From the NCBI GenBank assembly GCA_964016885.1, contig OZ024745.1, positions 20,460,001-20,524,000 of the forward strand: a DNA stretch of 64,000 bases, given 5' to 3'. This DNA comes from Eledone cirrhosa (taxonomy: Eukaryota). The notes beneath the pieces are model-generated. The model worked only from the letters and a program-made list of their open reading frames with translations, searched no databases and was not told the DNA's origin. Below are positions 33,019-38,000 of the stretch, one piece after another. A program made the translations under genes and the position numbers. Numbering within the stretch: position 1 is the first letter of the stretch; each line of letters begins with the position of its first letter.

Positions 33019-35010
33019 ATAAATGCTCTGAAATAGCGATATATATGTGAATATAGACATAGAATATTCGAAAATATTCTGTATGTTTATAATAAACATT
33101 TTGAAGACCTAATCGCTATAGAATAGAATACGTCACGTATTACAATTAGATTCTCGATAAAAGCAAGGGAAGTAATCTACGCGTTTCATTCTTGTTAGAA
33201 TTCATCAGGACTACATATCCAGTGCTTTTATCGAGAATGACACAGCTAGAGACTTATAGAATACTTAGCTGTGTACAGGAACTGGTTTGAAAGAGCGGTT
33301 GCCGGTCCGGCAGAAATTAGAAATTGGAATAAATGCTCTGAAATAGCGATATATATGTGAATATAGACATAGAATATTCGAAAATATTCTGTATGTTTAT
33401 AATAAACATTTTGAAGACCTAATCGCTATAGAATAGAATACGTCACGTATTACAATTAGATTCTCGATAAAAGCAAGGGAAGTAATCTACGCGTTTCATT
33501 CTTGTTAGAATTCATCAGGACTACATATCCAGTGCTTTTATCGAGAATGACACAGCTAGAGACTTATAGAATACTTAGCTGTGTACAGGAACTGGTTTGA
33601 AAGAGCGGTTGCCGGTCCGGCAGAAATTAGAAATTGGAATAAATGCTCTGAAATAGCGATATATATGTGAATATAGACATAGAATATTCGAAAATATTCT
33701 GTATGTTTATAATAAACATTTTGAAGACCTAATCGCTATAGAATAGAATACGTCACGTATTACAATTAGATTCTCGATAAAAGCAAGGGAAGTAATCTAC
33801 GCGTTTCATTCTTGTTAGAATTCATCAGGACTACATATCCAGTGCTTTTATCGAGAATGACACAGCTAGAGACTTATAGAATACTTAGCTGTGTACAGGA
33901 ACTGGTTTGAAAGAGCGGTTGCCGGTCCGGCAGAAATTAGAAATTGGAATAAATGCTCTGAAATAGCGATATATATGTGAATATAGACATAGAATATTCG
34001 AAAATATTCTGTATGTTTATAATAAACATTTTGAAGACCTAATCGCTATAGAATAGAATACGTCACGTATTACAATTAGATTCTCGATAAAAGCAAGGGA
34101 AGTAATCTACGCGTTTCATTCTTGTTAGAATTCATCAGGACTACATATCCAGTGCTTTTATCGAGAATGACACAGCTAGAGACTTATAGAATACTTAGCT
34201 GTGTACAGGAACTGGTTTGAAAGAGCGGTTGCCGGTCCGGCAGAAATTAGAAATTGGAATAAATGCTCTGAAATAGCGATATATATGTGAATATAGACAT
34301 AGAATATTCGAAAATATTCTGTATGTTTATAATAAACATTTTGAAGACCTAATCGCTATAGAATAGAATACGTCACGTATTACAATTAGATTCTCGATAA
34401 AAGCAAGGGAAGTAATCTACGCGTTTCATTCTTGTTAGAATTCATCAGGACTACATATCCAGTGCTTTTATCGAGAATGACACAGCTAGAGACTTATAGA
34501 ATACTTAGCTGTGTACAGGAACTGGTTTGAAAGAGCGGTTGCCGGTCCGGCAGAAATTAGAAATTGGAATAAATGCTCTGAAATAGCGATATATATGTGA
34601 ATATAGACATAGAATATTCGAAAATATTCTGTATGTTTATAATAAACATTTTGAAGACCTAATCGCTATAGAATAGAATACGTCACGTATTACAATTAGA
34701 TTCTCGATAAAAGCAAGGGAAGTAATCTACGCGTTTCATTCTTGTTAGAATTCATCAGGACTACATATCCAGTGCTTTTATCGAGAATGACACAGCTAGA
34801 GACTTATAGAATACTTAGCTGTGTACAGGAACTGGTTTGAAAGAGCGGTTGCCGGTCCGGCAGAAATTAGAAATTGGAATAAATGCTCTGAAATAGCGAT
34901 ATATATGTGAATATAGACATAGAATATTCGAAAATATTCTGTATGTTTATAATAAACATTTTGAAGACCTAATCGCTATAGAATAGAATACGTCACGTAT
35001 TACAATTAGA
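33013..35010 (-). repeat. 310-bp hammerhead tandem array, left arm (about 6.4 units, 6 ribozymes on the minus strand)
   Basis: attggaataaatgctctg recurs at 33013, 33323, 33633, 33943, 34253, 34563 and 34873; tcatcag (reverse complement of CTGATGA) occurs once per full unit. Confidence 0.95.
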
Positions 35011-38000
35011 TCTAATTGTAATACGTGACGTATTCTATTCTATAGCGATTAGGTCTTCAAAATGTTTATTATAAACATACAGAATATTTTCGAATATTCT
35101 ATGTCTATATTCACATATATATCGCTATTTCAGAGCATTTATTCCAATTTCTAATTTCTGCCGGACCGGCAACCGCTCTTTCAAACCAGTTCCTGTACAC
35201 AGCTAAGTATTCTATAAGTCTCTAGCTGTGTCATTCTCGATAAAAGCACTGGATATGTAGTCCTGATGAATTCTAACAAGAATGAAACGCGTAGATTACT
35301 TCCCTTGCTTTTATCGAGAATCTAATTGTAATACGTGACGTATTCTATTCTATAGCGATTAGGTCTTCAAAATGTTTATTATAAACATACAGAATATTTT
35401 CGAATATTCTATGTCTATATTCACATATATATCGCTATTTCAGAGCATTTATTCCAATTTCTAATTTCTGCCGGACCGGCAACCGCTCTTTCAAACCAGT
35501 TCCTGTACACAGCTAAGTATTCTATAAGTCTCTAGCTGTGTCATTCTCGATAAAAGCACTGGATATGTAGTCCTGATGAATTCTAACAAGAATGAAACGC
35601 GTAGATTACTTCCCTTGCTTTTATCGAGAATCTAATTGTAATACGTGACGTATTCTATTCTATAGCGATTAGGTCTTCAAAATGTTTATTATAAACATAC
35701 AGAATATTTTCGAATATTCTATGTCTATATTCACATATATATCGCTATTTCAGAGCATTTATTCCAATTTCTAATTTCTGCCGGACCGGCAACCGCTCTT
35801 TCAAACCAGTTCCTGTACACAGCTAAGTATTCTATAAGTCTCTAGCTGTGTCATTCTCGATAAAAGCACTGGATATGTAGTCCTGATGAATTCTAACAAG
35901 AATGAAACGCGTAGATTACTTCCCTTGCTTTTATCGAGAATCTAATTGTAATACGTGACGTATTCTATTCTATAGCGATTAGGTCTTCAAAATGTTTATT
36001 ATAAACATACAGAATATTTTCGAATATTCTATGTCTATATTCACATATATATCGCTATTTCAGAGCATTTATTCCAATTTCTAATTTCTGCCGGACCGGC
36101 AACCGCTCTTTCAAACCAGTTCCTGTACACAGCTAAGTATTCTATAAGTCTCTAGCTGTGTCATTCTCGATAAAAGCACTGGATATGTAGTCCTGATGAA
36201 TTCTAACAAGAATGAAACGCGTAGATTACTTCCCTTGCTTTTATCGAGAATCTAATTGTAATACGTGACGTATTCTATTCTATAGCGATTAGGTCTTCAA
36301 AATGTTTATTATAAACATACAGAATATTTTCGAATATTCTATGTCTATATTCACATATATATCGCTATTTCAGAGCATTTATTCCAATTTCTAATTTCTG
36401 CCGGACCGGCAACCGCTCTTTCAAACCAGTTCCTGTACACAGCTAAGTATTCTATAAGTCTCTAGCTGTGTCATTCTCGATAAAAGCACTGGATATGTAG
36501 TCCTGATGAATTCTAACAAGAATGAAACGCGTAGATTACTTCCCTTGCTTTTATCGAGAATCTAATTGTAATACGTGACGTATTCTATTCTATAGCGATT
36601 AGGTCTTCAAAATGTTTATTATAAACATACAGAATATTTTCGAATATTCTATGTCTATATTCACATATATATCGCTATTTCAGAGCATTTATTCCAATTT
36701 CTAATTTCTGCCGGACCGGCAACCGCTCTTTCAAACCAGTTCCTGTACACAGCTAAGTATTCTATAAGTCTCTAGCTGTGTCATTCTCGATAAAAGCACT
36801 GGATATGTAGTCCTGATGAATTCTAACAAGAATGAAACGCGTAGATTACTTCCCTTGCTTTTATCGAGAATCTAATTGTAATACGTGACGTATTCTATTC
36901 TATAGCGATTAGGTCTTCAAAATGTTTATTATAAACATACAGAATATTTTCGAATATTCTATGTCTATATTCACATATATATCGCTATTTCAGAGCATTT
37001 ATTCCAATTTCTAATTTCTGCCGGACCGGCAACCGCTCTTTCAAACCAGTTCCTGTACACAGCTAAGTATTCTATAAGTCTCTAGCTGTGTCATTCTCGA
37101 TAAAAGCACTGGATATGTAGTCCTGATGAATTCTAACAAGAATGAAACGCGTAGATTACTTCCCTTGCTTTTATCGAGAATCTAATTGTAATACGTGACG
37201 TATTCTATTCTATAGCGATTAGGTCTTCAAAATGTTTATTATAAACATACAGAATATTTTCGAATATTCTATGTCTATATTCACATATATATCGCTATTT
37301 CAGAGCATTTATTCCAATTTCTAATTTCTGCCGGACCGGCAACCGCTCTTTCAAACCAGTTCCTGTACACAGCTAAGTATTCTATAAGTCTCTAGCTGTG
37401 TCATTCTCGATAAAAGCACTGGATATGTAGTCCTGATGAATTCTAACAAGAATGAAACGCGTAGATTACTTCCCTTGCTTTTATCGAGAATCTAATTGTA
37501 ATACGTGACGTATTCTATTCTATAGCGATTAGGTCTTCAAAATGTTTATTATAAACATACAGAATATTTTCGAATATTCTATGTCTATATTCACATATAT
37601 ATCGCTATTTCAGAGCATTTATTCCAATTTCTAATTTCTGCCGGACCGGCAACCGCTCTTTCAAACCAGTTCCTGTACACAGCTAAGTATTCTATAAGTC
37701 TCTAGCTGTGTCATTCTCGATAAAAGCACTGGATATGTAGTCCTGATGAATTCTAACAAGAATGAAACGCGTAGATTACTTCCCTTGCTTTTATCGAGAA
37801 TCTAATTGTAATACGTGACGTATTCTATTCTATAGCGATTAGGTCTTCAAAATGTTTATTATAAACATACAGAATATTTTCGAATATTCTATGTCTATAT
37901 TCACATATATATCGCTATTTCAGAGCATTTATTCCAATTTCTAATTTCTGCCGGACCGGCAACCGCTCTTTCAAACCAGTTCCTGTACACAGCTAAGTAT

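Follow-up and report, generated by a model that had tools for sequence, protein, structure and literature searches.

How can a tandem array of short, non-coding units come to stand in a genome as a perfect inverted repeat, with both of its outer ends fused to (TA)n? The question is raised by a stretch of 64,000 nucleotides from Eledone cirrhosa (assembly GCA_964016885.1, contig OZ024745.1, positions 20,460,001 to 20,524,000, forward strand), here called the window, in which two arrays of a 310-nt unit with a hammerhead ribozyme motif meet head to head. A sequence-only reading had given the base of the ribozyme hairpin a special role as inversion point and had proposed that both ends of a break in a TA repeat primed reverse transcription independently. 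Comparison with the other members of the family shows that the palindrome at the hairpin base is incidental and that paired ends and a common template are the finding. With a probability of roughly 0.6, the window array is a single insertion of a young hammerhead-motif family, a retrozyme without long terminal repeats (non-LTR retrozyme), whose mostly two-armed insertions, one arm with a long and one with a short end, arise by Penelope-like two-ended priming on the same, probably circular, RNA.

The Window Array

Unit positions are counted from window position 35011, which is unit position 1.

32983–33012: left part of the (TA)n target
33013–35011, minus strand: left arm, 6.45 units of 310 nt, with its 3′ end at unit 138 (position 33013; long end, with tail)
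35010–35011: inversion junction, a 2-nt self-complementary AT common to both arms and centre of the palindrome
35010–38222, plus strand: right arm, 10.36 units, with its 3′ end at unit 103–112 (short end, no tail)
38223–38261: right part of the (TA)n target
35110–35122, plus strand: short 3′-end site in the first right-arm unit (unit 100–112), putative reverse transcriptase (RT) start site 1
35148–35155, plus strand: long 3′-end site (unit 138–145), putative RT start site 2
35233–35321, plus strand: hairpin closed by a 16-bp stem (35233–35248 paired with 35306–35321; RNAfold) and enclosing the hammerhead
35257–35299, plus strand: minimal type I hammerhead motif, one per unit (motif scan)

Tandem Repeats Finder delimits two adjoining 310-bp arrays (33013–35011 and 35010–38222), with a GC content of 0.33–0.35 and zero mismatches across 17 units. 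The geometry that had been read from the sequence is confirmed. A script finds a perfect palindrome with arms of 1,998 bp (33013–37008), whose sole centre within 35000–35020 lies at 35010/35011, i.e., at unit 310/1, the final two bases of the 3′ strand of the 16-bp stem (unit 223–238 paired with 296–1). The ribozyme sense is on the minus strand in the left array and on the plus strand in the right array, and the arms point outward and end in (TA)n at different unit positions, the left one at unit 138 (...CCAAT) and the right one at unit 112 (...CACATATAT), where the exact base within 103–112 is masked by its likeness to TA. The centre is free of a spacer, as had been said, but it is not blunt, since the arms overlap by the self-complementary AT and thus form a 2-nt microhomology junction. 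The sequences flanking the array differ between the two sides and are not mirrored. An array of this kind with TA-fused ends is far beyond chance. Repeats in the range of about 150–400 nt, low GC, the lack of a long open reading frame (ORF) and a motif in every unit are what a retrozyme presents; no ORF of at least 150 amino acids is found across the array, and hence no ORF for an RT with GIY-YIG endonuclease (EN), such as an autonomous Penelope-like element would have.

Two Arms With Paired Ends

Copies of the family were located by pattern matches in the 3.0-Gb genome, in which unit 138 is fused exactly to TA 1,041 times. Insertions were collected on contig C1 in three samples, consisting of the 11 arrays found within the first 100 matches to the ribozyme core, irrespective of their ends, of the first 100 long-end matches, and of short-end matches in the first 115 Mb without an exact long end nearby. 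After repeats had been dropped (L041, L074, the second insertion in L054, and the duplicated copy in L062), 134 insertions (129 + 5) remained, which leave out the window itself and four loci that had been selected on account of their junction. In 116 of the 134 insertions and in 9/11 of the end-blind set, a minus arm is succeeded by a plus arm, with the 3′ ends outward. Genome-wide, a 14-nt marker detects 86 divergent junctions (spacer of at most 100 nt) versus 0 convergent ones. This layout and polarity bear out the proposals that both ends of a (TA)n break prime RT and that the array resembles the inverted 5′ copies known for Penelope. At least nine minus-to-plus arm joints of the 310-nt family, in various registers and at a depth of 11–35, occur in contigs of the public run X1, so that this class of junction is backed outside the present assembly.

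The two ends of an insertion are not alike. In 116/116 two-armed insertions one end lies at unit 100–112 and the other at unit 127–145 (for these pairs, L200 is completed by L223, and the far ends of L079 and L075 come from neighbouring stretches). As the far end was free in every sample, 8 of these insertions being end-blind, 90 chosen by the long end and 18 by the short end, pairs of two long or two short ends would have shown up. Short ends are mainly at unit 103 (59) and 112 (37), long ends at unit 138 (93), 140–145 (19), and 127 (1), and the 26–42 nt (about 35) that separate the two sites correspond to a Penelope-type tail. Pure TA of at least 8 nt is present at both ends in 101 of 111 insertions; the sole non-microsatellite site, L035, carries a 12-bp target duplication. 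A constant target duplication of about 33 nt, prompted by L045 and L189, was unsupported against shuffles. Fixed 3′ ends and variable 5′ ends, together with the 1,041 end fusions, point to dispersal by retrotransposition, and the 30–40-nt tail at one end, the inverted 5′-truncated copy, and the AT-microsatellite target point to mobilisation by a Penelope-like element (PLE).

At least two units are spanned by 168 of 220 arms, and either kind of arm can be longer by more than one unit (35 vs 44 of 110 insertions). Related subfamilies, 75–82% alike over aligned stretches, keep unit 30–140 and the same two end sites and have diverged in the ribozyme region. One-armed insertions in the first 115 Mb of C1 mostly carry the short rather than the long end (11 vs 1), in a sample that favours short ends. 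Four of the 11 with a short end (L032, L087, L220, and L222) stop at unit 123–140, near the long start site, possibly by a stall at a bound second subunit. In runs X4 and X7, which bear other organism labels, 340-nt contigs match the whole unit with one mismatch; these may come from close relatives, mixed samples or a recent spread, which are indistinguishable.

A Probable Common Template for Both Arms

Haplotypes were compared at 13 diagnostic sites in the 94 insertions in which both arms reach at least one unit. The arms are concordant in 92 of them, whereas shuffled pairs are discordant in a mean of 77 and a minimum of 66 (2,000 shuffles). The strict pairing of one long with one short start site and this common haplotype indicate that the two primings are coupled, and the idea that the two break ends primed independently is not supported.

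In addition, 15 loci carry among them 16 sample-private variants, each of which is fixed throughout both arms; position 177 of L070, a 1:1 tie, would have been the seventeenth and was left uncounted. The rate of such variants (16 per 94 × 310 sites, or 5.5e-4) is close to the substitution rate within insertions (6.1e-4), so each insertion fits a passage through one monomer. Such an origin of the daughter array from a single unit fits rolling-circle reverse transcription of a monomer circle. An array of about 54 copies with recurring variants (L074/L075) is a possible source locus.

Inversion Junctions

Junction statistics comprise 113 insertions with 226 5′ ends, L042 being left out as a compound junction. 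Inversion points are distributed near-uniformly round the unit (chi-square p = 0.17), and 6 of the 226 ends lie within 4 nt of the window centre versus 6.6 expected, so that a fixed inversion point at the stem base is rejected. The inversion points, which the sequence-only reading had wanted tabulated, thus turn out to be near-random, an outcome that it had named as refuting; this tells only against its hairpin-base idea and leaves its two-ended priming untouched. Neither do the stop points of the two arms match, since only 17/113 fall within 20 nt of each other versus 15.3 expected. A perfect palindrome is seen in 1/113 junctions (L191, at GC). Considering all loci, perfect palindromic junctions at other self-complementary spots comprise L191 (GC), L152 and L153 (TCGA), and G000:C2:337881023. 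Because junctions of the family are near-uniform and symmetry is not enriched, the window junction is an ordinary member at the symmetric extreme, and its perfect symmetry is likely due to chance.

Microhomology at the junctions averages 2.1 nt versus 0.76 expected, and fillers, often copied from the unit, occur at 26/113. Between the arms of L085 (1599–1870) there is an unrelated GC-rich filler of 272 nt, possibly captured RNA or DNA. Several other preferences were considered. Near-symmetric stem-base junctions exist at five loci genome-wide, of which two, both at TCGA, differ in flanks and haplotype, but a control marker gave 2 junctions with a spacer of at most 12 nt among the first 50 listed, and the contrast is unconvincing. 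At the predicted cleavage site 5′ ends do not accumulate (2 vs 3.6 expected), and an L1-like collision, in which the long arm would run into the short priming site, is unsupported (11 vs 7.9 at unit 95–116). A modest post hoc enrichment of 5′ ends at unit 296–310, in the 3′ strand of the stem (19 vs 11, p about 0.02), carried by a weak excess of short-arm stops (13 vs 5.4 expected), is a lead only.

Coding Penelope-Like Copies

The genome contains 10,596 GIY-YIG candidates, of which 150 were scored and 50 loci examined. Coding copies have a cysteine motif ahead of the GIY-YIG domain that resembles the one described, in the available text, for Neptune, Nematis, and Naiad elements. The GIY-YIG-coding copies L137, L138, L139, L143, L146, and L150 are inverted and divergent like the 310-nt insertions, with a tail at one end and a short end at the other. 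L137 and L138 are near-perfect kb-long palindromes, and yet each of them has one long and one short end.

A Model and Its Alternatives

According to the model that we propose, a source unit would be transcribed, self-cleaved, and circularised, and a complex of Penelope-like RT and GIY-YIG EN, probably a dimer, would bind the conserved unit 30–140 and cut (TA)n. Given the pattern of ends, in which the same site is never used twice, priming would start at about unit 103–112 on one DNA end and at about 138–145 on the other. Both RTs would then circle the template for 0.2 to more than 25 turns and stop nearly at random. As the junctions suggest, the cDNA 3′ ends might anneal over 1–5 nt or be joined by short fillers, and each cDNA would template the second strand of the other. 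The earlier proposal that two cDNAs were joined at their 5′ ends holds for the RNA-sense 5′ ends, but in terms of the cDNAs these correspond to the 3′ ends at which synthesis proceeds. The window palindrome would be the occasional case in which both cDNAs ended at the same self-complementary dinucleotide. A more specific version, on which we would place slightly less than even odds, is twin-primed rolling-circle reverse transcription by an asymmetric PLE dimer, in which the subunits start respectively at the short and the long site on one viroid-like circle of RNA and chase each other round it, and the cDNAs are joined end to end. If so, a single event would give rise to whole satellite-like arrays in the form of kb-long inverted repeats, and the same rule would explain the tail and the inverted pseudo-LTR (pLTR) of Penelope in general, symmetric junctions arising only upon run-off on linear RNA.

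Several observations weigh against two-ended priming on one circle. A second arm of at least 24 nt is absent in 18/134 insertions, although one of these is cut by an assembly gap and two (L083 and L158) show a tiny long-end arm by eye. Arm lengths are weakly correlated (Spearman 0.25), and target duplications as a class are near the shuffle level (15 vs 6–11), being masked by (TA)n. No ORF-linked homolog of unit 30–140 was found among the 50 GIY-YIG loci or in the flanks of the other loci. L137 (3344–3370) and L138 (4388–4396) have hairpin-like junctions with loops of 26 and 8 nt, which fit fold-back or two RTs running off the end of a linear RNA. In vitro, according to the available text, the start site of a PLE is alike on both strands and ribozyme cleavage is unneeded (Frangieh et al., 2024; PMC11167929). 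Mosaics count as well, because a single monomer circle cannot yield them: repeated unfixed variants are seen in 10/112 insertions, L064 changes allele within one arm, variants recur in L075, L085, L053, and L055, and in L166 one haplotype occupies the two outermost copies of each arm and another the inner copies. The switch in L166 shows coupling, and a multimer template or a joint template switch fits it better. Finally, a common haplotype means a common source, and one molecule is indistinguishable from two molecules of one source.

It is from these mosaics that an alternative draws its strength in which the same two-ended, two-site priming takes place on linear multimeric RNA transcribed from a source array, as one molecule or as two of one locus, without a circle. 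Above all L166, with both arms reading X,X,Y... from their 3′ ends, would follow from it, as would L070, whose arms have a variant in common at copy 2; long heterogeneous arrays such as L074/L075 exist as candidate sources, and the predominant substrate in vitro is unprocessed RNA in what is available of PMC11167929. We nevertheless consider it unlikely. A bottleneck of one unit is needed for the 16 private variants, which are fixed throughout and occur at about the single-copy variant rate, the 10 insertions with repeated unfixed variants are just a small part of 112, and run-off at a common RNA 5′ end predicts matched stops, of which there is no enrichment. Fold-back is less probable still. 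Here the primed strand would copy itself, and the endonuclease would then sever this copy at the tail's other boundary, a scheme much like the self-priming by which the available text of PMC3846280 proposes to account for head-to-head palindromes of Penelope. A common haplotype would then be trivial, and the perfect palindrome of the window junction and the small loops at the kb-long inverted arms of L137 and L138 would be accounted for. Against it, the offset between the 5′ ends of the arms modulo 310, a measure immune to changes in copy number, does not cluster near zero (the 17 vs 15.3 and the single perfect case in 113 given above), either of the arms may exceed the other by more than one unit, and the variants of L166 are mirrored from the outer ends and not from the junction. 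Fold-back is therefore disfavoured for the retrozyme, although some linear coding PLE copies may still use it.

Origins outside reverse transcription fare worse. One-direction satellites might have grown by unequal exchange and later have been partly inverted or gene-converted, in keeping with the local tandem amplification discussed in the available text of bioRxiv 10.64898/2026.07.22.740005, with the recurring variants of some long arrays, and with L064, which looks converted; such a history can yield neither outward canonical RNA 3′ ends at both borders in 116/116 nor a polarity of 86 vs 0, and it is very improbable. Hardly any credence is left for fold-back chimeric reads or misassembly as the origin of the palindrome. 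A perfect spacer-less palindrome of identical units would invite this suspicion, and the 35010/35011 junction is unbridged among contigs listed from the four public runs X1, X2, X3, and X6, which is uninformative either way because the runs may be from another individual and contigs break at palindromes. However, the outer ends of the window array differ and are both canonical, its flanks are unmirrored, most junctions of the family are asymmetric with microhomology or fillers, and divergent joints of the family are present in X1 contigs.

The family comprises roughly 1,600 very young two-armed insertions with internal haplotype markers, an estimate from 86 junctions in a range that covers about 5% of offsets. 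These insertions imply that many near-perfect inverted repeats of kb length are entering this genome.

Hammerhead Motif and Neighbouring Repeats

The hammerhead consists of stem I (35257–35262 with 35294–35299), CUGAUGA (35263–35269), stem II (35270–35283), and GAAA; stem III is replaced by a palindromic CGCG, and cleavage is predicted from the motif after 35293 (unit 283). Rfam gives no match at the gathering threshold; below it, Hammerhead_HH9 matches with E = 0.001 and 23 bits, under the gathering score of 52 bits. The 35-nt ribozyme core has 2,771 exact copies genome-wide. A frame of 19 codons (35267–35326) starts within the CUGAUGA core; the 257A haplotype lacks this frame. Relative to the ribozyme, the Anolis PLE has its start codon at the same place. 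Other families contribute five further type I hammerhead motifs, in which the loop of stem III is palindromic, at window positions 3195, 16945, and 40484 (plus strand) and 1764 and 43581 (minus strand), and the family at 3195 also occurs as inverted copies in L163.

The right flank of the array (38262–38490) is, by eye, a 5′-truncated minus-strand copy of the 3′ end, with a tail of about 35 nt, of the coding Penelope-like family of L139, which makes the window TA tract a nested target. The left flank (32760–32982) belongs to a different repeat of very high copy number, which reaches a far greater depth in X1 contigs than the array does, also adjoins TA tracts in L037 and L138, and has opposite-strand joints in X1 contigs. 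Further away, 44580–49545 (minus strand) contains an L1/Tx1-like long interspersed element, labelled by reading its translation, with an ORF of 624 amino acids and with an RT ORF in two pieces of 445 and 397 amino acids.

Relation to Known Systems

In L1 twin priming, one RNA serves as template for priming by both nicked ends of the target, and the inverted 5′ part is joined by microhomology. The second primer anneals at variable internal sites, which is where the first cDNA ends. In contrast, both sites are fixed in the family described here, and stops of the long arm are not enriched at the short site.

A closer likeness exists to EN-positive PLEs, for which the available text of two papers describes an inverted, 5′-truncated head-to-head copy, a tail of 30–40 bp at one end, a bias for (TA)n, microhomology at 5′ junctions, and an occasional short target duplication (PMC3846280; PMC8557442). 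The head-to-head layout with inverted pLTR, the tail, the (TA)n bias, and the junction microhomology are shared with the present family, which differs by having no ORF and two multimeric arms. Also, whereas the PLE tail is described there as optional or often at one end, it is at exactly one end in 116/116 insertions here. The origin of the tandem and inverted structures of PLEs and of their tail is named an open question in PMC8557442, as far as its available text goes, and the statistics of our junctions speak against self-priming as modelled in PMC3846280.

For the Poseidon PLE of Anolis, the text available reports that in vitro both target strands are cut and extended at an AT-rich target, that two internal RT starts bracket the tail downstream of the hammerhead, and that a dimer is predicted (Frangieh et al., 2024; PMC11167929). 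Two start sites bracketing a tail and an AT-rich target are likewise indicated here. Short AT microhomology accompanies the starts in the present family, while none is reported in what is available of that study, which in the same text leaves aside circular templates and the question of how starts are paired within an insertion. That one long end goes with one short end on one template is a sharp rule, which can be put to an existing in vitro system.

For metazoan non-LTR retrozymes, the conversion of circular RNA to tandem cDNA by a PLE RT has been proposed (Cervera and de la Pena, 2020; PMC7229834), and phylogeny has been used to tie retrozymes to the pLTRs of PLEs (Li, Clavereau, and Pollet, 2026; bioRxiv 10.64898/2026.07.22.740005). 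As in the accounts available from these two sources, the family has tandem, AT-rich, non-coding units of about 300 nt with one type I hammerhead each, and its thousands of copies co-occur with PLEs. Inverted arms, microsatellite targets, and fixed 3′ ends are undescribed in the searched text of both. In a literature search whose scope was main texts other than the older Drosophila Penelope papers, two-armed retrozyme insertions, strict long/short pairing, and haplotype sharing between arms were unreported in the text available. The components are known separately, and as far as these searches reach, strict pairing and a common template are the new part. The integration of animal retrozymes had previously been inferred only from common ribozymes and phylogeny. 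Unlike in those accounts, as far as they are available, the PLE signature is carried here by the insertion boundaries themselves, which tie retrozyme integration to the PLE machinery and favour coupled two-ended priming over self-priming.

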